Positions 43,068-52,245 of a stretch of 64,000 nucleotides of DNA are shown here, piece after piece. This DNA is from a virus. The notes beneath the pieces are model-generated. The model was not told where the DNA came from, made no database searches, and worked only from the letters and a program-made list of their open reading frames with translations. The first letter of the stretch is position 1, and every line of letters starts with the position of its first letter. The position numbers and the translations under genes were made by a program. The stretch lies in IMG/VR virus record IMGVR_UViG_3300028840_003906. One strand, 5' to 3'.

Positions 43068-45119
43068 ATGATCATCGTAACCAAGCAAGGACGGAAGAAG
43101 TCCGTCCTGACACCAGATGAAATAGAAGAGCGGGCAGGGGACATCGTCTCGAATTTGACTCCGCAAGAGCAGGAGCTTTTCTTCGGGCTCTTGGATGACG
43201 ATGTGGAGGAGCAGGCCAAGGTCGAGGAGACGATGATTCAGCACCGGTATCACACGAGGCCGGTGTCGATGGAGCAATTTATCGAGGATCCGTACTACCT
43301 TGGTGAGTCGTGCACGACGATTTACCCGCAGCTGAAAGAGGACCTGATCAACCTGTTTGAGCATCCCTACCGGGAGGTGGTTCTCACAGGTGGTATCGGA
43401 GTCGGAAAGACGTATAGCCTTTCGATTGCCCTGTGTCGGGTGATCTATGAGCTGTCCTGTCTGGTGAACCCGCAGAAGACGTTTGGCCTGTCCTCTGGTA
43501 CCGAGATGGTGATCCCACTGATCTCGAAGAACCTGATCCTGGCCCGGGAGGTCATGAAGACGGCTGTCGATGACAAGCTCAAAGAGAGCCCGTACTTCAT
43601 GGAGAAGTTCACGCCGAAGATCTCAAAGGATGCGACGGTGTTTCCGAATAACATCCGTGTGGTCATCGGTTCGTACGGCTCGGAGCGTATCCTGGGATCG
43701 AACGTTTTTGCATGCGGGCTGGACGAGACGAACTTCCCGCCGACCCGCCGGTCCCAGCAGATCACCACGGCGATCGGGCAGCGGAAGACGGCGGCTCACT
43801 TCGATCCAGTCGAGAAGGTCTACAGGAACCTTTTGCGTCGTATCAAATCCAGGTTCCAGAAGGCCGGTGGGGACTTCCCGGGGATGGTCATCCTGGCTTC
43901 TTCGGCAGCGACCCTGGAGAGCTTCACCGAGCGGAAGATGCGTGAGAGCGCGAATGATCCACAGGTCTTCGTGCGGGACCATACGGCTTGGACGGCGAAG
44001 CCAGAGACAGAGTTCTGCGGCGAGAAGTTCTGGGTCATCTGCTCTACATCCTCCTTGAGAGCGCGGATTCTCGAAGAGGAAGAGTACGACGACATCACGG
44101 ATGAGTACCTGGAGGAGAACGACGCTTGGCTGATCGACATCCCGATCGAATACCTCACGGACTTCGAGACGGATATCGAGAATGCTTTGAGGGATATTGC
44201 TGGTATTTCAACACAGGCAATCTCGTCGTTCATCCAGCGGCCCGAGGCTGTTGATGCGTGTGCGGTTGAAGAGCTTCCTCATGCGTTCTCGATGGGGGAA
44301 TGGACCGCTGGTGGGCCGGGATCGTTCCTGTGGCGCCAGATGTGCAAAGAGTTTGAAAGGACGATTCCTGGCGGGTACAAGGAGACGGCGTGGGCACCGA
44401 AGATCAACCCCAAGAAGATGCGGTGGTGTCATATTGATACGTCGTTGTCCGGGGACGCGACTGGATTCTGTGTTGGGCACATCGACAAGTGGGTGGAGGT
44501 CGTGCGCCGTTCCGAGAAGGGGGAGCACTTCGCCGAGCTTGCACCGTTCTACATCATCGACGTCTTATTGAGGATCAATCCGCCTCCAGGGGAGCAGATT
44601 TACATGCCGGACCTTCGGAGGTTGGTGTACGAGTTGCAGGCGCACGGGTACACATTTGCGGGGCTTTCCACGGATACCTACCAGTACGTCGAGATGCATC
44701 AGCAGATACGAAGGCGGGGAATCACACCTCACATCGTTTCGATGGATGTGAAGACCGATCCGTACGATGAGCTGAAGAGGGCCATTTACGAGGATCGGAT
44801 CCGGTACCACAAGTACGATCCGTTTATTGAGGAGCTGAAGTTCCTGGAGTACGACAGGCTGAAGGGGAAGATCGACCACCCTCAGGCGGGGTCGAAGGAC
44901 GTCTCTGATGCGGCGGCAGGTGTGGTATATTCTTTGTTGGAACATTCGACACGCTTGCCAATTGGTCTCGGGTCTGATACCTCTAAAAAGAGCATGCATG
45001 CGAATTCTTGGGTGAGTACCCTGGTTCCGGCATCTCAGGTCGACCTGGAAGAAGTGAGAGAAGCTGCTGATGATGCAAGAGACGACTCCGAGTTTGTCCC
45101 CATCCTGTTTGGAGATTAA
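43068..45119 (+). CDS. terL: terminase large subunit
   Basis: Walker A TGGIGVGKT, Walker B GLDETN, nuclease HIDTSLSGDATG and KIDHP..GSKDVSDA. Confidence 0.93.
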   Translation: MIIVTKQGRKKSVLTPDEIEERAGDIVSNLTPQEQELFFGLLDDDVEEQAKVEETMIQHRYHTRPVSMEQFIEDPYYLGESCTTIYPQLKEDLINLFEHPYREVVLTGGIGVGKTYSLSIALCRVIYELSCLVNPQKTFGLSSGTEMVIPLISKNLILAREVMKTAVDDKLKESPYFMEKFTPKISKDATVFPNNIRVVIGSYGSERILGSNVFACGLDETNFPPTRRSQQITTAIGQRKTAAHFDPVEKVYRNLLRRIKSRFQKAGGDFPGMVILASSAATLESFTERKMRESANDPQVFVRDHTAWTAKPETEFCGEKFWVICSTSSLRARILEEEEYDDITDEYLEENDAWLIDIPIEYLTDFETDIENALRDIAGISTQAISSFIQRPEAVDACAVEELPHAFSMGEWTAGGPGSFLWRQMCKEFERTIPGGYKETAWAPKINPKKMRWCHIDTSLSGDATGFCVGHIDKWVEVVRRSEKGEHFAELAPFYIIDVLLRINPPPGEQIYMPDLRRLVYELQAHGYTFAGLSTDTYQYVEMHQQIRRRGITPHIVSMDVKTDPYDELKRAIYEDRIRYHKYDPFIEELKFLEYDRLKGKIDHPQAGSKDVSDAAAGVVYSLLEHSTRLPIGLGSDTSKKSMHANSWVSTLVPASQVDLEEVREAADDARDDSEFVPILFGD

Positions 45120-45121
45120 GC

Positions 45122-46786
45122 ATGGCGTGGCTTGACTGGATAGGTACCTTCTTTTCGAAGGAAAAGGAGCAACAGGTCGCAAAAGAGGCTCGCGGAGTAT
45201 CGGTCGGGACCCCCGGACAGGCGGGGCAGGTCGGTAGCGGAAACCTGGAGTCCGAGCCGGGCTACGGGAATCTTTGCGATTCGCTTGGTGTCGATCAGGA
45301 CCTGATGCGTCGGTATGCCGACTACGAGAACATGGACGACTATCCCGAGACGTCCATGGTTCTTGATCGCTATGCGGACGATTCGACGATTCCGGACTCC
45401 ATTCACAACAAGACGATCTGGTCCATCTCCAGAGACAAGGTTTTCAGAGATCTGATCGATGACTGCATGCACAGGCGCGTGCAGATCGAGGAGGACATCT
45501 GGGTCGCGGTTCGGACGCTCTGCAAGTATGGAAACCTCTTCGGTGAGGTCCTTGTGAACGAGACCGGTGTGGTCGGTATCAACTGGCTGCCGGTTGCCAC
45601 GATGCGGAGAATTGTTGACGAGAAAGGTGCCCTGATTGGGTTCGTCCAGGACATGACGGGGACTTTCAACTTCGATTACAAGGAATCGATCGATGCGTTG
45701 AAGGCCCACCAGCTCCCGGAGGTTCACGACACCGACAACCACAAGAAGGTGACGTTTTTCAGGCCCTGGGAGGTTGTCCATTGGAGGCTGCGCAGCAAGA
45801 TGATGCGCGCTCAGTACGGGTACAGCGTGCTGGATTCGTCCCGGTGGGTTTGGAAGCGTCTGATTCTGATGGAGGACACGGCGCTCGTACAGAAGCTCAC
45901 TCGATCACCTGGAAGGTATGCCTTCTATGTGGACACGGGGGATCTGCCGCCCAAGGAGGCGATGGCTCTCGTCAAGAAGGTGAAGCGGGGTTACAAGAAG
46001 AAGAAGTTGGTGGACCCGAGCACGGGTCAGCTGGATTTCAGATACAACCCGCTCTCTCCGCATGAGGATTTCTGGGTTCCAACCCGTGGGCAGAAGGACT
46101 CGACGAGGATCGAGGTAGTTTCTGGCCCAGATGTTCAGATGATGGACGACGTCGAGTACTTCCGCGAGAAGCTAAGGAAGGCTTCTGGGGTTCCGGACGA
46201 GACGGAAGACGCATCCAAGCCGTTCAGCGAGGGGAATGCACGGTTTGCGCGCGCGTGTATGCGTGTGCAGCGTGAGTTCATGACCGGGATGAGAAAGGTC
46301 ATTAAGGTCCACCTGGCGGCACTGAACATCGATGCCGATTCGGTGAAGTGGCATCTGAAGATGACCATCCCGTCTCCGGTGTTCGAGATGCAGCAGATCG
46401 AAATCATGAATGCGCGGGCGGCCCTTGCTGACTCGATGACTGAGTGGACGACCAAGACTTGGATTCTGCAGCACGTCTTCAAGTTCCCAGAGGACGACGC
46501 AACAGCGATGTCGCGGGACAAGACCGATGAGGTTGACGAGGTCATGAAGCGTGAGGCTGCGACCCAGGCGGATATCATCAGGCTGTACCCACAGTTGCAG
46601 GATATGCCGGTGCCGGAGGGGTCCGAGCCGGTGAAGGAAAGTATCAAGAGTGAGATTGCTGGGCTGAAGAAGATCTATGAAGAGACTAGTCAAAGCTCTT
46701 CAGAGGTGATAAAAAGATTCGAGAGGCTGGATTCGAGATTGGGTCGCGTTGAAAAGACCATCAAGACTTCGGCTATCTCGGGATAG
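45122..46786 (+). CDS. gp20: portal protein (T4 gp20-like)
   Basis: LMEDTALVQKLTRSPGRYAFYVDTGDLP and EDFWVPTRG...TRIEVVSG match gp20 motifs. Confidence 0.93.
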   Translation: MAWLDWIGTFFSKEKEQQVAKEARGVSVGTPGQAGQVGSGNLESEPGYGNLCDSLGVDQDLMRRYADYENMDDYPETSMVLDRYADDSTIPDSIHNKTIWSISRDKVFRDLIDDCMHRRVQIEEDIWVAVRTLCKYGNLFGEVLVNETGVVGINWLPVATMRRIVDEKGALIGFVQDMTGTFNFDYKESIDALKAHQLPEVHDTDNHKKVTFFRPWEVVHWRLRSKMMRAQYGYSVLDSSRWVWKRLILMEDTALVQKLTRSPGRYAFYVDTGDLPPKEAMALVKKVKRGYKKKKLVDPSTGQLDFRYNPLSPHEDFWVPTRGQKDSTRIEVVSGPDVQMMDDVEYFREKLRKASGVPDETEDASKPFSEGNARFARACMRVQREFMTGMRKVIKVHLAALNIDADSVKWHLKMTIPSPVFEMQQIEIMNARAALADSMTEWTTKTWILQHVFKFPEDDATAMSRDKTDEVDEVMKREAATQADIIRLYPQLQDMPVPEGSEPVKESIKSEIAGLKKIYEETSQSSSEVIKRFERLDSRLGRVEKTIKTSAISG

Positions 46787-46795
46787 GGGTGAGAG

Positions 46796-47653
46796 ATGTA
46801 CATCCAAGGTTCTGCGATCGACAAGAAATTCAAAGGGAGTCTGGAGCACCAGGCCCAGCTCATCGGCGAGGCGATTGCTGAGCATTTCGGTGATTCTCCC
46901 GTGAGTGTGCTCGCTACTCAGGCGAAGCATGCGTTTGTTGTGGATGGGTCCGGATCCATTCTGAAGGTCTCCTACAAGGTCGAGGGCAAAGAGGTGAAGG
47001 TCACCCGAGCCAAGAAGACCGACGAGATTCCCGTGATCGAGGACAAGGATGTCCCACGGTTTGTCTCCGATCAGCTGCGCTCTTTGGCGGAGGCTGTGAT
47101 GAGTGGAAAGCCGATGGAACGAACTCAAGTTCGTGAACTCGCGCAGCTCATCGACAAAGACGAGGCGTATTGGGTCTCTGATGTGATCGAGGGGATCGAC
47201 GAGGCTGTCGAGAACGGCACCTGGTTCGGGATGTACGAAGCGAACCAAGAGCAGATTCGGACGACCATGTACGGTCGAATCCGTGAGATTGAGTCTCCAT
47301 TCACTTCCACAAAGTTTTCGAAGATCGCACCGTCGAAGCTCTCGAAGTTCGAGGGTGAACTCCGTGAAGCGGTGAGCGTTTTGTCCGGTTTGGTCAACAA
47401 GGTAGTTGACGAATGCTCAGGGATGGTGTTTGATCAGGATCAGGATGATTTTTTCAGTGCTATCTGTGAATCGTTGAAAGTTGAAGCGCAGGCCATTGGT
47501 GGCTTGCTCGGCAAGGCCGAAAAGTTGATGCGATCTGACGATGTCGGTCGCGTTGCAGAAGCACATGACAGGCTTGCTGAGCGAGCGAAGACAATGGCCG
47601 TCGTGACCGAGTACATGAAGACTAGGTCACAACCAACAGGAGACGAGGAGTAG
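46796..47653 (+). CDS. putative head-assembly protein
   Basis: Lies between portal and protease; GGGGTGAG RBS. Confidence 0.7.
   Translation: MYIQGSAIDKKFKGSLEHQAQLIGEAIAEHFGDSPVSVLATQAKHAFVVDGSGSILKVSYKVEGKEVKVTRAKKTDEIPVIEDKDVPRFVSDQLRSLAEAVMSGKPMERTQVRELAQLIDKDEAYWVSDVIEGIDEAVENGTWFGMYEANQEQIRTTMYGRIREIESPFTSTKFSKIAPSKLSKFEGELREAVSVLSGLVNKVVDECSGMVFDQDQDDFFSAICESLKVEAQAIGGLLGKAEKLMRSDDVGRVAEAHDRLAERAKTMAVVTEYMKTRSQPTGDEE
47119..47134. repeat. 16-bp near-palindrome, copy 14
   Basis: aCGAACTCAAGTTCGt; mid-CDS in the head module. Confidence 0.95.
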
Positions 47654-47657
47654 AAAA

Positions 47658-48725
47658 ATGGCACAGAAGAAGGTCACGACAACCCTCAATGAGGACATGC
47701 AGGTTCTCGGCATCCCGGGTGTCAACATGGCAGAGCAGGCGCGTCTTGGTGGCATCCCTCTGAGCGAAGACAAGGACGAGGGACCGGCCGATGACGAGCT
47801 TCAGGAGATGATGAAGGAAGGGTACAAGGAGGGCATGACGTGCCCGAAGTGCAAAAAGGGCAAGATGTCCAAGCACAGGTGCCCGGACTGCGGATTCGAG
47901 GTCAAGCCAGAGTATCGCCAGGATCCTGGGAAGCAGGTTGCTGCTTCCACGAACGAGGAGGCCGAGGGCGACGATGAGGTTCATCCCCTCGACGCACCTG
48001 AAGTGAACGAGGACCTGTTCACTGCGATCATGGACCTTCCGTTTGACGACATGAAGGCCGAGGACGTGGAGGAGGTTCTGGAGGCTCTCAAGGAGAAGGA
48101 CCTTCCGGAGGATGCTTCTGACGGGCTGAAGGAGCGTGCCGAGGAGGTCGTGGACTTCCTGATCGAGGCTGTGGCGAAGAAGACCCGTCGGGCGAAGGCT
48201 GGATCGATGGCGAAGAAAGCCTCCTTCCAGTGCCCTCCCGGAACCCGGAAGGACCCAAAGGACAAGGCTGGCCGTCGGTGTATCCGCGCCGCGAAGGCCG
48301 CTGGTGGATCAGGCAAGCTCGCCAAGGAGACCCGCAAGAAGGGTCGCTGGGCGAAGTCCGGCAAGGGCAAGAAGTCTGCTCGCAAGTCGTCTCGTTGGGC
48401 TGCCCGTCGTGAGGACATCCAGTCGCCGTTCGCTGCTGAACTGCATGGACTCCTAGAGGATACGCAGGAAGAGATCCAGGAGAGCGTGCGCGACGAGATC
48501 ATCGAGCGCATTGGCGACATCCTGGAGATGTTCTGCGAGGAGTTCAACGATGAGGCCGTGACGCGCGTCTTCGAAGAGGCGTACGAGCCGGTGCTTTCTT
48601 CCATGGAATCCGGGCGTCTGGACGAGGACGTCATGGACGAGGACGAGTTTGTCGCTGAAATCAAGCCACTGGTGACGCTGATCCACAAGTCGATCGAGCG
48701 CATCGGGGCCGACTCGGGAAACTGA
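47658..48725 (+). CDS. putative prohead core protein (acidic and basic blocks; T4 gp67/gp68 position), short isoform
   Basis: GAGGAG RBS; zinc ribbon, acidic blocks and a K/R-rich block; highly biased codons. Confidence 0.75.
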   Translation: MAQKKVTTTLNEDMQVLGIPGVNMAEQARLGGIPLSEDKDEGPADDELQEMMKEGYKEGMTCPKCKKGKMSKHRCPDCGFEVKPEYRQDPGKQVAASTNEEAEGDDEVHPLDAPEVNEDLFTAIMDLPFDDMKAEDVEEVLEALKEKDLPEDASDGLKERAEEVVDFLIEAVAKKTRRAKAGSMAKKASFQCPPGTRKDPKDKAGRRCIRAAKAAGGSGKLAKETRKKGRWAKSGKGKKSARKSSRWAARREDIQSPFAAELHGLLEDTQEEIQESVRDEIIERIGDILEMFCEEFNDEAVTRVFEEAYEPVLSSMESGRLDEDVMDEDEFVAEIKPLVTLIHKSIERIGADSGN

Positions 48726-48782
48726 TAAGTCGTCTCGGCGAGGCGGTGTGGCGTCGTCGCACCGGTACTACGTCGGGACGAC
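48716..48782 (+). promoter_or_regulatory. -1 programmed ribosomal frameshift signal
   Basis: In-frame slippery heptamer G GGA AAC (48716-48722), 6-nt spacer, then a stem-loop at 48729-48782 with a 12-bp basal stem. The -1 frame stays open to 48943. Confidence 0.78.
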
Positions 48783-48947
48783 AGGAGCTGGTTGGTTTTG
48801 AGTCGCTTAAAAAAGCTGCTAGGCCCGATGGCAAGAAAACGGATAGACGAGTCTCCCCGGAGGCCAAGAGGAAACTCGACCGCAATCCGCTTGGAAGAAC
48901 ACGTTTCAGGCGGTGGCGAAGCAAAACCGGCAAGAGAGGGTGATGAG

Positions 48948-50585
48948 ATGCCGAATCTGCTGATTGAATCGAATCCAGTAACCATGACACTCCATGAGAG
49001 TGCCGGTGGTAAGGTGATCGCTCGCGGCGAGTATGGTCGTGTTGGCGTTGCGACTCAGAACGGGCGCATCTACCCCGAGAAGCTGATGGAACGGGAGATC
49101 AATAGGCTGAGTGCCGATCTTTCGAGCCGTCGCGTACTCGGGGAACTGGATCATCCGACGGATGGGAAGACGAGCCTGAAGCGAGTCTCCCACGTCATCA
49201 CCGGTCTCAAGATCAAAGATGGTATCATCATTGGCGAGGCCGAGATCCTCAACACACCTGAAGGGCAGACTCTCAAGGCTCTGATCGAGGCGAAGGTTCA
49301 GATCGGCGTTTCGTCCAGGGGGTTTGGATCCACTCGTCCCTCTGAGGACCCGAAGATGGAAGGTGATGTGGTCCAGGATGACTTCGTTTTGAAGACCTGG
49401 GACTTCGTTGCCGACCCGGCTGTCAAGACGGCCATTCCCGGGATTTTCACCGAGGACGTGGACGAGAACCAGCCTGACATCGCAGAGATGTTCCTGGCCG
49501 AGTTTCCTGACATCGCATCGAAGCTCCAGGAGGACGCTCTCGATCGTGCGAAGCTGAAGGTCAACAAGGGCGTCGAGGAGGCCGTAAAAGAGGCCGAGGA
49601 TCGTGTCCGGGCGGAGTTGTCCGAGAAGTTCGAGAAGGGCCTTGCTGAGGCCATCGTGGACGCCAAGGAGCAGCTTAGCGAGGAGCTGCGCGAGGAGTTC
49701 GAGTCCGATCCGGAGATTGGCGGAGCGAAAGCTGCGCTGTCTGCCATCTGGGAGATGGTTGCGCCGTTCAGGGCCACGGATGATGAGGTAGCATTGGCAG
49801 ACGCGGAGAAGGCACGGGAGCTGGAGGTTTCCGAGGCCAAGGACGCGGCTGTGCAGGCGGAGGATCGTGCGGTTCAGGCCGAGTGCATGGCGTACATCGA
49901 GCGTGAGATCAACGGTCATCCGATGGCGGAGTCGATCCGGGGGTTGGTCAAGAAGGCCAAGTTCGACGGGCTCGACGATGCAAAAGAGAAGCTCGCGGCA
50001 ATTCTCTCCGATCTTCCGGAGAGGACGGACGAGAACTTTGTCTCCCGCGAGGAGGCTGAGTTGCGCGAAGAAAATGCCGCGATGAAAGAGAAAGTATCCC
50101 TCCTCAGTGAGAGGGTGAATTCGCTGGATAGTAAACTGCGGAGAGCTGTAGAGGTTGGTGACGAGCTGGATGCTCAGCGAGTAGATGCTGAGGCTCGGGC
50201 GCATGAGCTGGAGGAACAACTCAAGGAGACATCTTCGAAGGTTGACTCGATGAAGGGACAACTGGAAGAGGCCGACAAGATGTTGGAACTCGAAGCGTAC
50301 AAGCGCGACAAGGTTGCTGGGATGCCAAATGGTAGAGAGCTGAGTAGTCTCCTGGAGGACATCACCTCCAAGGACAAAGTTGATGAGTTGGTGGCGAAGA
50401 GGGGCTATCGGGAGGTCTCCAGTCAGGAGCTGGCCGAGGCGAGGAAGACCCTTGCTCGGGGTGCCGGTGAAAGGCAGGAGGAAGAGAGGCCGCTGGCCGA
50501 AGGAACTGTGTCAACGAGACCGACATCTGACGATCTCGGGAATGACATGTCCTTCATGAAGCGGTTGGCAGGCGTCGGCGAGTAG
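48948..50585 (+). CDS. gp21: prohead protease (T4 gp21/S77-like) fused to a coiled-coil scaffold region
   Basis: GELDHP, GVSSRGFGS and WDFVADPA motifs, then about 370 aa of acidic coiled coil; GAGAGGGTG RBS before ATG 48948. Confidence 0.92.
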   Translation: MPNLLIESNPVTMTLHESAGGKVIARGEYGRVGVATQNGRIYPEKLMEREINRLSADLSSRRVLGELDHPTDGKTSLKRVSHVITGLKIKDGIIIGEAEILNTPEGQTLKALIEAKVQIGVSSRGFGSTRPSEDPKMEGDVVQDDFVLKTWDFVADPAVKTAIPGIFTEDVDENQPDIAEMFLAEFPDIASKLQEDALDRAKLKVNKGVEEAVKEAEDRVRAELSEKFEKGLAEAIVDAKEQLSEELREEFESDPEIGGAKAALSAIWEMVAPFRATDDEVALADAEKARELEVSEAKDAAVQAEDRAVQAECMAYIEREINGHPMAESIRGLVKKAKFDGLDDAKEKLAAILSDLPERTDENFVSREEAELREENAAMKEKVSLLSERVNSLDSKLRRAVEVGDELDAQRVDAEARAHELEEQLKETSSKVDSMKGQLEEADKMLELEAYKRDKVAGMPNGRELSSLLEDITSKDKVDELVAKRGYREVSSQELAEARKTLARGAGERQEEERPLAEGTVSTRPTSDDLGNDMSFMKRLAGVGE

Positions 50586-50619: not shown

Positions 50620-52245
50620 ATGAGTAATCAGGCAACCGAAGCGCGTGCTCTTCTGGAGCAGGCAGGTCCGAAAACCGTTCACGATCAGAGCTACGCTGGC
50701 GCATGCATGGCCAAGTGGGGCGAGCTTCTGGAGGGGATTCCCACCAAGGGCGACAATGGGTACACCAAGAAGGTGACCGCGCTTCTGCTCGAAAACGAGA
50801 TGGAGCACATCAAGTCCTTCACTGAGGACACTCTGTCGACCAACGCTGGCGCGTTCACCAAGTACGTGTTCCCGATCCTGCGCCGGGTTTTCCCGAACCT
50901 GATCGCGAACCAGCTCGTGTCGGTTCAGCCGATGACGTCCCCGGTCTCGGGCATCTTCTACTACGAGAAGAAGTACGACGATCGGAAGGGCACGAAGATC
51001 CCGCAGGGGTCCATCAGCAACAACCCGACCGACATGAACTACGACGGCAAGCTGAATGCCGACGACAACGTCAACCAGAACTTCGCGAAGTACTACAGCA
51101 GCGAGTTCATCGATTACGATGACACCTGCACCGACACCGGAACCAGTACTGCGACCCTGAACCAGGGTTCCGCGAACTGCCGCGTGACCGAGTGGAGCCC
51201 GATCCGTGCGAACGGAACGGCTGGCCAGCGGACCTTCTACGTGAAGGCGTACTACCGCTGCAACGACGCGGACAACGCGAACACCCCGACCGAGGTCATC
51301 GCCACGATGGACGACTCGGGCAACCTGATCGACGACCTGAACCCGTCCGGGACGCAGAACGTCGGTTCCTTCGACGTCACCACAGGAAACTGGGCGATCA
51401 CGCCGCTGGGATCCGGTGGTTCGGCATCGAACTTCACCAACAACACCGTGATCTACTTCCAGTACTTCGTGAACTGGGAGCTGGTCGGCTACACCGATGG
51501 CGCCGAGATCCCGAGCATCAGCCTGGACATCGCTCTGCACACCGTGCAGGCCGAGAGCCGCAAGCTGAAGGCCCGCTGGACGGTCGAGGCTGTCGATGAC
51601 CTGCGCGCCCTCCACGGTCTGGATGCCGAAGCCGAGCTGGTTTCGACGTTCTCCAACGAGGTCATGCTGGAGATCGATCGCGAGATCGTGACCGAACTCA
51701 TCAACGGTGCGGCCCACTCGGCCAACTACACCTACAGCTCGACCACGCCGGGCGAGGTGGAGAGCATCCGCCAGATGGTGACGCAGATCTCCGCGATTTC
51801 CGCTGAGATTCACCGCACCTCCGGTCGTGCTCCGGCCAACTTCCTGGTCGTGTCCCCGGCAGTCGGCGGACTCCTGGACCAGCTCTCGACGCACGGCGAC
51901 TTCGCCAGCATCGAGCAGAACGTCCAGAGCCCGAGCTACGGTCCGCTGACCAGCAACTTCGGCATCGCGCGCATCGGTACGCTGCTCCGCAAGTGGGCGG
52001 TCTACCAGGATCCGTACATGACCGGAGACCAGGTGCTGATCGGCCTGAAGGGGAACAACTTCCTGGATGCCGGTTATGTGTACGCTCCGTACGTACCGCT
52101 GCAGGTCACCCCGACGTTCCTCGACCCGAACGACTTCACGTTCAGGAAGGGCGTCCGGACCCGCTACGCGACACGCATGCTCCGTCCGGAGTACTACGGC
52201 GTGCTCAACGTGAGCGGCCTGCCGACGGTCACCTCCAACCTGTAA
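50620..52245 (+). CDS. gp23: major capsid protein (T4 gp23-like)
   Basis: VQPMTSP, RKLKARWTVEAVDDLRALHGLDAEAEL...EIDREI, YAPYVPL and GVRTRY motifs; extreme C-ending codon bias. Confidence 0.96.
   Translation: MSNQATEARALLEQAGPKTVHDQSYAGACMAKWGELLEGIPTKGDNGYTKKVTALLLENEMEHIKSFTEDTLSTNAGAFTKYVFPILRRVFPNLIANQLVSVQPMTSPVSGIFYYEKKYDDRKGTKIPQGSISNNPTDMNYDGKLNADDNVNQNFAKYYSSEFIDYDDTCTDTGTSTATLNQGSANCRVTEWSPIRANGTAGQRTFYVKAYYRCNDADNANTPTEVIATMDDSGNLIDDLNPSGTQNVGSFDVTTGNWAITPLGSGGSASNFTNNTVIYFQYFVNWELVGYTDGAEIPSISLDIALHTVQAESRKLKARWTVEAVDDLRALHGLDAEAELVSTFSNEVMLEIDREIVTELINGAAHSANYTYSSTTPGEVESIRQMVTQISAISAEIHRTSGRAPANFLVVSPAVGGLLDQLSTHGDFASIEQNVQSPSYGPLTSNFGIARIGTLLRKWAVYQDPYMTGDQVLIGLKGNNFLDAGYVYAPYVPLQVTPTFLDPNDFTFRKGVRTRYATRMLRPEYYGVLNVSGLPTVTSNL

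Follow-up and report, generated by a model that had tools for sequence, protein, structure and literature searches.

Probable programmed -1 ribosomal frameshifting at the end of a head-module gene in T4-like sediment phages

How does a phage use the 220 nt that lie between the stop codon of one head gene and the start codon of the next? The question is raised by the virus record IMGVR_UViG_3300028840_003906, of which a stretch of 64,000 nt (called the "window" below) was analyzed. The window contains a T4-like head module, all of it on the plus strand, which is recognizable in the list of open reading frames (ORFs) and from Pfam and PHROG matches. Within this module, a gene for a 355-residue protein (here called the carrier) is followed by the apparent gap, behind which lies the gene for a prohead protease of the S77 type. 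A preliminary description, made from the sequence alone, held that the gap is translated by means of a -1 ribosomal frameshift, giving isoforms of 355 and about 428 residues. A conserved slippery heptamer, a covarying hairpin and a coding -1 frame now support this proposal, and programmed -1 ribosomal frameshifting (-1 PRF) is very probably the process by which the two isoforms, of 355 and 428 residues, are made.

The 3' end of the carrier gene reads TCG GGA AAC and is followed in frame by TGA and TAA. This places the heptamer G GGA AAC (48716-48722) in X XXY YYZ phase, right before the stop. A 6-nt spacer (48723-48728) separates it from a hairpin that starts at 48729. The -1 frame is open from the heptamer through a TGA at 48941-48943 and adds 73 residues, so that the predicted extended product has 428 residues and a mass of 47.9 kDa. 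Its stop lies four bases before the protease ATG at 48948. All coordinates in the preliminary description were accurate, among them the limits of the hairpin (48729-48782), and so were the 12 pairs of its basal stem, two of them G-U. The inner stem is also present, but the five pairs assigned to it were too few, the predicted fold having nine. The heptamer by itself is not rare, as there are seven copies of G GGA AAC in the window where nine are expected. The case for frameshifting thus rests on the phase of the heptamer, its position and its conservation in relatives.

Relatives were assembled into a set of 18 distinct loci, the window included, from IMG/VR and JGI metagenome contigs of up to 195 kb, and into 44 homologous clusters of the 355-residue protein from a protein database. 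The extension (the "tail") has 40-91% identity across the 18 loci. A slippery heptamer is found in phase at every one of them. It is G GGA AAC at 17 loci and A AAA AAC at the remaining one (L017), where one canonical heptamer has been swapped for another. A zero-frame stop codon, which may be TGA, TAA or TAG, follows zero or one codon past the heptamer in the relatives. The residue in front of the glycine varies (Ser, Leu, Glu or Met), although the third base of its codon is always identical to the X of the heptamer, showing that the constraint acts on the nucleotides. None of the 44 clusters, whose members are 286 to 389 residues long, is fused in frame to give a protein of about 430 residues. 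Nearly all of the clusters terminate in Gly-Asn, with or without one further residue; Lys-Asn is found at the end of one, and there is one exception (P0031). The locus L019 recurs identically in an independent co-assembly (L045). The heptamer, the covariation of the hairpin and the open -1 frame, which the preliminary description had proposed to look for in homologous genomes, were all borne out by the relatives.

The exceptional cluster P0031 derives from locus L044, at which positions 1560-1571 read GGG GAA AAG TAG, followed by a CCCCTCC/GGGGAGG hairpin; the tail is still in the -1 frame. This may be a variant site at which slippage takes place on A AAG, or else the 1.7-kb contig may contain an assembly error. 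The contig of L045 (CAYRYW010000002.1, 150 kb) had been binned in a metagenome-assembled genome of an uncultured member of the Dehalococcoidales, which is a weak lead, being either a hint at the host or a case of mis-binning. A G-rich stretch resembling a Shine-Dalgarno sequence (GAGG, GGAG or GGTGA) is situated about 6-12 nt 5' of the heptamer in most relatives, and its equivalent in the window is at 48698-48713. With a weak trend (median at the 14th percentile, 37th for the window) and loci that are not independent of one another, an upstream stimulator of this kind is not claimed.

The predicted minimum-energy fold of the hairpin has 14 outer pairs and a 9-pair inner helix. The segment 48716-48800 has a minimum free energy of -39.6 kcal/mol (z = -4.2), and not one of 200 shuffled sequences was as stable. 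In 12 close sequences, 85% of the cells are paired, as opposed to 37-51% after sliding the 3' partners by 1-3 columns. Seven of the pairs have changed on both sides in a compensatory way, and all five measures applied to the 12 sequences were above those of nearly all shuffles. The same two-helix fold was found by RNAalifold without being supplied to the program. In the distant loci L018, L019, L038, L040 and L041 there are unrelated GC-rich hairpins, which start 6-7 nt past the heptamer; the predicted stem of L042 starts only 1 nt past it. Over the set of loci, a stable hairpin generally stands some 6-8 nt past the heptamer. The folding energy of the 60 nt past the heptamer does not exceed the 2nd percentile of 60-nt windows at 13 of the 18 loci, and in most relatives no other window of this length in the locus is as stable. 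A stable structure at a distance of 5-9 nt, such as accompanies -1 PRF, is thus present (at 6 nt in the window) and is backed by comparison. No Rfam match was found near the site.

Right after the hairpin, an AGGAG (as part of CAGGAG, 48783-48788 in the window) is nearly invariant in its nucleotides at all loci. It codes for the Lys-Glu or Gln-Glu of the tail, and no conserved start codon follows it in any frame.

The frame under selection was determined from pairwise differences among 12 close sequences. Upstream of the heptamer, the differences at zero-frame codon positions 1, 2 and 3 number 290, 114 and 905. Downstream of the heptamer they number 696, 404 and 1999 at the positions of the -1 frame, and the hairpin segment alone gives 185, 150 and 603. 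The third-position excess switches frame at the heptamer, and therefore the frame under selection shifts back by one base there. Going upstream from the heptamer, a stop closes the -1 frame within 1-3 codons at many loci. From the shift site onwards the -1 ORF evolves under protein-coding selection, and it has no initiation signal of its own, as would be expected of canonical -1 PRF. The tail is the best-conserved part of the cassette, with 79-91% identity in close relatives compared with 51-65% for the carrier, and its core D-G-K-K-T is invariant. The tail profile, run against 1.8 billion representative proteins, matched only short gene calls (43-92 residues), which start at arbitrary positions of the profile, and in no case was the tail an in-frame C-terminal domain of a larger protein. 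Two long matches to the profile (P0058 and P0060) were rejected as unrelated repeat proteins.

In the proposed mechanism, most ribosomes would terminate at TGA 48723 and release the 355-residue protein, an acidic/basic helical component of the head module. The stem-loop, 6 nt further on, would hold back a fraction of the ribosomes at the moment when GGA and AAC (48717-48722) are occupied by tRNA-Gly and tRNA-Asn. The two tRNAs would then slip back by one base to pair with GGG and AAA, and decoding would resume at CTG 48722 in the -1 frame and continue for 73 codons. The adjacent stop codon may also aid the slip. The junction of the 428-residue product would read ...D-S-G-N-L-I-S-R-L-G-E... and lead into a tail with an isoelectric point (pI) of 12. 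By analogy with other phage proteins made in two lengths, the longer isoform is presumably the minor form.

The other explanations of the locus, taken together, have a small probability. One of them holds that the -1 ORF is an independent gene for a basic protein of about 65 residues, starting for instance from GTG 48746, and that the heptamer is a coincidence. This GTG does exist in the window, and public gene callers call ORFs of 43-92 residues at the tail. However, the starts that they call are at arbitrary positions; the GTG is absent from L029, L013, L014 and other loci, and upstream of it in the window there is only a GAGG at a 2-nt spacing, so that it lacks a well-spaced ribosome-binding site, as had been noticed at the outset. 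The entire -1 ORF of L013 and of L019 is devoid of ATG, GTG and TTG. Moreover, the third-position pattern and the amino-acid conservation begin at the heptamer, upstream of any candidate start, and the nucleotides of the heptamer and of the preceding wobble base are fixed, making a separate gene very unlikely. A highly improbable variant is reinitiation: after terminating at TGA 48723, ribosomes would begin again close by in the -1 frame, on a non-canonical codon, and make a separate peptide. The immediate adjacency of the stop would favor such reinitiation, as would the near-cognate codons CTG and ATA that come after it in the window, but the codons past the stop vary among the relatives (CTA ACG in L015, CGA GTA in L019) and there is no conserved restart codon. 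Reinitiation also leaves unexplained the strict X XXY YYZ phase, which is retained in the swap to A AAA AAC, and the presence of a hairpin at the spacing typical of frameshift sites.

It is most unlikely that the hairpin chiefly regulates the protease, whether as a terminator, as a processing site or in the leader of a protease extended at its N-terminus from TTG 48792 or 48798. The protease frame is open from 48792, and it contains a TTG about 10 nt past the conserved AGGAG that follows the hairpin. Nevertheless, no U-tract follows the hairpin and no terminator or promoter was called in 47400-49200. In the protease frame upstream of 48948 variation is greatest at the second codon position, the translation is poorly conserved, and in L017 a stop closes the frame until about 3109. 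What is conserved is the protease N-terminus, which is kept as MPNLLIE in relatives, and its own Shine-Dalgarno sequence at the 48948 start. The N-terminally extended protease was rejected because of the substitution pattern and the stop in L017. The chance that an indel from assembly or sequencing, or a recent mutation creating a pseudogene, has split what is truly a single 428-codon frame is practically negligible. The exact 355-residue protein occurs on 11 contigs, seven of which were examined; these seven independent assemblies (two from ENA, two from JGI and three from Logan) are identical over the 360 nt of 48601-48960. Furthermore, the 18 diverged loci and the 44 clusters keep the -1 offset with varied stop codons, and no fused form was found. 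The 1-nt assembly indel that the preliminary description had named as the finding that could overturn its proposal is thus excluded. Transcriptional slippage was rejected as well, the only runs at the site being G3 and A3.

The carrier begins with an acidic variable N-terminal part, has a strongly basic block in the middle and ends in a C-terminal domain that is acidic and conserved. An AlphaFold (AF2) model, calculated with 32 homologs, is mostly helical (mean predicted local distance difference test score, pLDDT, 78; predicted template modeling score, pTM, 0.31). The tail has 24 Lys and Arg residues against 7 Asp and Glu residues and a pI of 12.0, and no relatives of it were found outside this cassette. 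The idea that the tail is a copy of the internal basic block of the carrier was rejected, as there is no significant similarity between them. The variable acidic part of the carrier contains a zinc-ribbon-like (Cys4) insert, Cys-x2-Cys...Cys-x2-Cys, at residues 61-81 (47838-47900). This insert occurs in some homologs only (for example P0005, P0009, P0020 and P0031) and is absent in most.

The gene is located between the genes for Portal_T4 and Peptidase_S77 and upstream of that for Gp23, which is the position of the core genes in T4. Leu/Ile-x-Glu is the motif cut by T4 gp21. A Leu-x-Glu is present at carrier residues 10-12 in all 44 clusters, and several further sites are conserved. In 16 of the 18 tails there is also a Leu-x-Glu within the first dozen residues past the shift site, and it persists in distant relatives (RLGEA, SLYEG, RLNEG, RLSEK, RLVEG) despite different surroundings and a different hairpin. 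We infer from the place of the gene between portal and S77 protease and from the conserved Leu-x-Glu motifs that the 355-residue protein is a prohead core protein. The likeness to the T4 core and internal proteins, as far as sequence is concerned, is confined to the motif. The preliminary description had spoken of a core protein in the position of gp67/gp68. The position in the portal-protease interval was borne out; no homology was found, there being no match of Pfam, PHROG, PDB or fold to gp67, gp68, gp22 or the internal proteins (IPs).

The presence of Leu-x-Glu just past the shift site and of an S77 gene next in order suggests that the protease may free a basic peptide in the head. The carrier would be built into the prohead core, taking the tail along. 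The S77 protease encoded by the next gene would cut at the Leu-Gly-Glu past the junction, as at the other Leu-x-Glu sites of the carrier, and some 65 residues would stay in the capsid as a free basic peptide, its stoichiometry being set by the efficiency of frameshifting. Delivery in this manner would resemble that of the T4 internal proteins, which are brought in by a targeting sequence that is cut off. Frameshifting might in this way be a dosing device: the carrier would bring a fixed small number of pI-12 peptides into the prohead, to be freed by the protease at Leu-x-Glu. The peptide would remain associated with the packaged DNA or the portal, and would either bind DNA inside the head or be ejected. 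This role is proposed tentatively, from sequence features, and is somewhat less probable than its alternatives taken as a whole.

Several observations weigh against these interpretations, some against the frameshift itself and others against the functions suggested for its products. Both arms of the hairpin encode conserved residues, and because of this constraint on the protein the conservation of the hairpin sequence alone would prove little. In E. coli, AAC in the A site is much less prone to shifting than is AAG (Atkins et al. 2016, PMC5009743), and so the efficiency of frameshifting in the host may be low; alternatively, the tRNA-Asn of the host may behave differently from that of E. coli. 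There was no relevant match to the gene (blastn, tblastn) or to the tail (tblastn) among 50,697 phage records, and there is no cultured relative. The assignment of the carrier to the prohead core is positional: the protein has no Pfam or PHROG family at E<=0.01, no PDB profile match, and no Foldseek match in PDB or BFVD at E<=0.001, and it has no similarity to the gene at the equivalent position in Caulobacter phage Cr30. For carrier and tail alike, searches of Pfam, PHROG, PDB profiles, ESM Atlas and Foldseek were uninformative as to family or fold. Leu-x-Glu, on which the cleavage step depends, is a short motif. The tail alone is modeled by AF2 at low confidence (pLDDT 53), so that its function is not constrained by structure.

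Comparison with known systems shows which features of the site are familiar. As in 10A/10B of phages T7 and T3 and gp5A/5B of Lactobacillus phage A2, a -1 slip near the 3' end of a head gene yields two isoforms that share their N-terminal body. The A2 site likewise combines an X XXY YYZ heptamer with a stem-loop downstream of it (Garcia et al. 2004, as cited in PMC5009743 and PMC5221750). Those proteins are major capsid proteins, whereas the protein described here is an unrelated non-shell protein encoded between portal and protease. Its extension, unlike those of T7/T3 and A2, is small, highly basic and apparently unstructured, stands behind a protease-type motif and has no sequence homology to them. 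Besides T7 10B and A2 gp5B, the known phage virion proteins extended by frameshifting (PMC5009743, PMC5221750) include SPP1 gp17.1*, by a +1 shift, and the lambda G/GT family. The heptamers G GGA AAC and A AAA AAC are both recorded for the haloarchaeal viruses HCTV-1 and HCTV-2, whose sites are among the homologs of the lambda G/GT tail assembly chaperone frameshift (PMC5009743).

The G/GT genes of phage lambda (G GGA AAG) resemble the present case in that a morphogenesis gene of a tailed phage has a deeply conserved -1 PRF, with a nearly identical heptamer and without unshifted fused relatives. Here, however, the site is in the head module and not between tail tube and tape measure, the protein family is unrelated, a strong hairpin follows, and the shift occurs at the last sense codons instead of internally. 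With its location in the head module and no match to a chaperone family in Pfam or PHROG, the gene does not belong to the tail assembly chaperones of the G/GT type. The E. coli dnaX tau/gamma site (A AAA AAG) is similar in being a -1 PRF of the bacterial type that has its stem-loop 6 nt downstream. The dnaX site has an upstream Shine-Dalgarno-like stimulator, whereas the corresponding element is weak in the window and a weak tendency in the relatives; the dnaX shift truncates the product with AAG in the A site, and the present one extends it with AAC. The T4 core and internal proteins (gp67, gp68, IPI-III and Alt) are comparable in that the gene lies between a gp20-like portal gene and a gp21-like S77 gene, with a gp23-like capsid gene after them, and in having Leu-x-Glu near the N-terminus and at the junction. 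By analogy with the T4 internal proteins, the basic peptide could stay with the DNA. In T4, however, there is no frameshift and the targeting sequence is a 10-residue leader, in place of which the whole 355-residue protein would here be the carrier.

The mechanism, then, is textbook -1 PRF, and what is new is the gene family and its context: a non-shell, T4-related head protein recoded at its last two codons, in a cassette without unshifted relatives, with a basic peptide that follows a motif of the protease type. Full-text literature searches, most subscription journals being outside their coverage, turned up no report of a frameshift in a prohead core gene of a T4-like phage. Gene callers miss the 428-residue isoform and leave either a 220-nt gap or arbitrary short ORFs. 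Since the tail, the most conserved part of the cassette, goes uncalled, what is probably a functionally important virion component has been overlooked in a whole clade. The clade comprises sediment phages of 150-195 kb, for all of which the annotation needs correction. The site adds a well-supported case of recoding outside the usual context of tail chaperones, supplies a natural example of G GGA AAC combined with a hairpin, presumably in a bacterial host, and gives a testable model of how T4-like phages might control the amount of a basic internal peptide that enters the head.

The features of the locus are collected in Table 1.

Table 1. Genes and signals around the proposed frameshift site, in window coordinates
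Feature	Position	Strand	Basis or remark
Large terminase	43068-45119	+	Head module
Portal_T4 protein	45122-46786	+	Pfam/PHROG
Unassigned 285-residue gene	46796-47653	+	Head module
Zero-frame gene of 355 residues, pI 4.8, mostly helical	47658..48725	+	ORF list
Slippery heptamer G GGA AAC, X XXY YYZ phase	48716..48722	+	Last two zero-frame sense codons
Zero-frame stops TGA TAA, forming the 6-nt spacer	48723..48728	+	Sequence
Putative stimulatory stem-loop, outer and inner helix	48729..48782	+	Folding, covariation
Extension in the -1 frame, 73 codons and TGA	48722..48943	+	Open frame, coding signature
Leu-Gly-Glu in the -1 frame, candidate prohead-protease site	48734..48742	+	Five residues past the shift site
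S77 (gp21-like) prohead protease	48948..50585	+	Pfam PF03420, PHROG 207
Gp23-type major capsid protein	50620-52245	+	Pfam/PHROG

The Shine-Dalgarno sequence of the protease gene, GAGGGTGA (48935-48942), is inside the 3' end of the -1 ORF. The MPNLLIE at the N-terminus of the protease itself contains a Leu-x-Glu. The C-terminal half of the protease is an acidic coiled-coil of about 300 residues, and the protein resembles a protease-scaffold fusion. In T4 and in Caulobacter phage Cr30, by contrast, gp21 and gp22 are encoded by separate genes, whereas here the protease is joined to the acidic coiled-coil.

The closest match to the capsid protein, in a 595-kb uncultured phage, has only 31% identity, indicating that the phage of the window represents a deep T4-related lineage. 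The first 60 residues of this gp23-like protein (50620-50800) contain three Leu-Leu-Glu motifs, which are consistent with a propeptide of the T4 type that would be cut off by the S77 protease.

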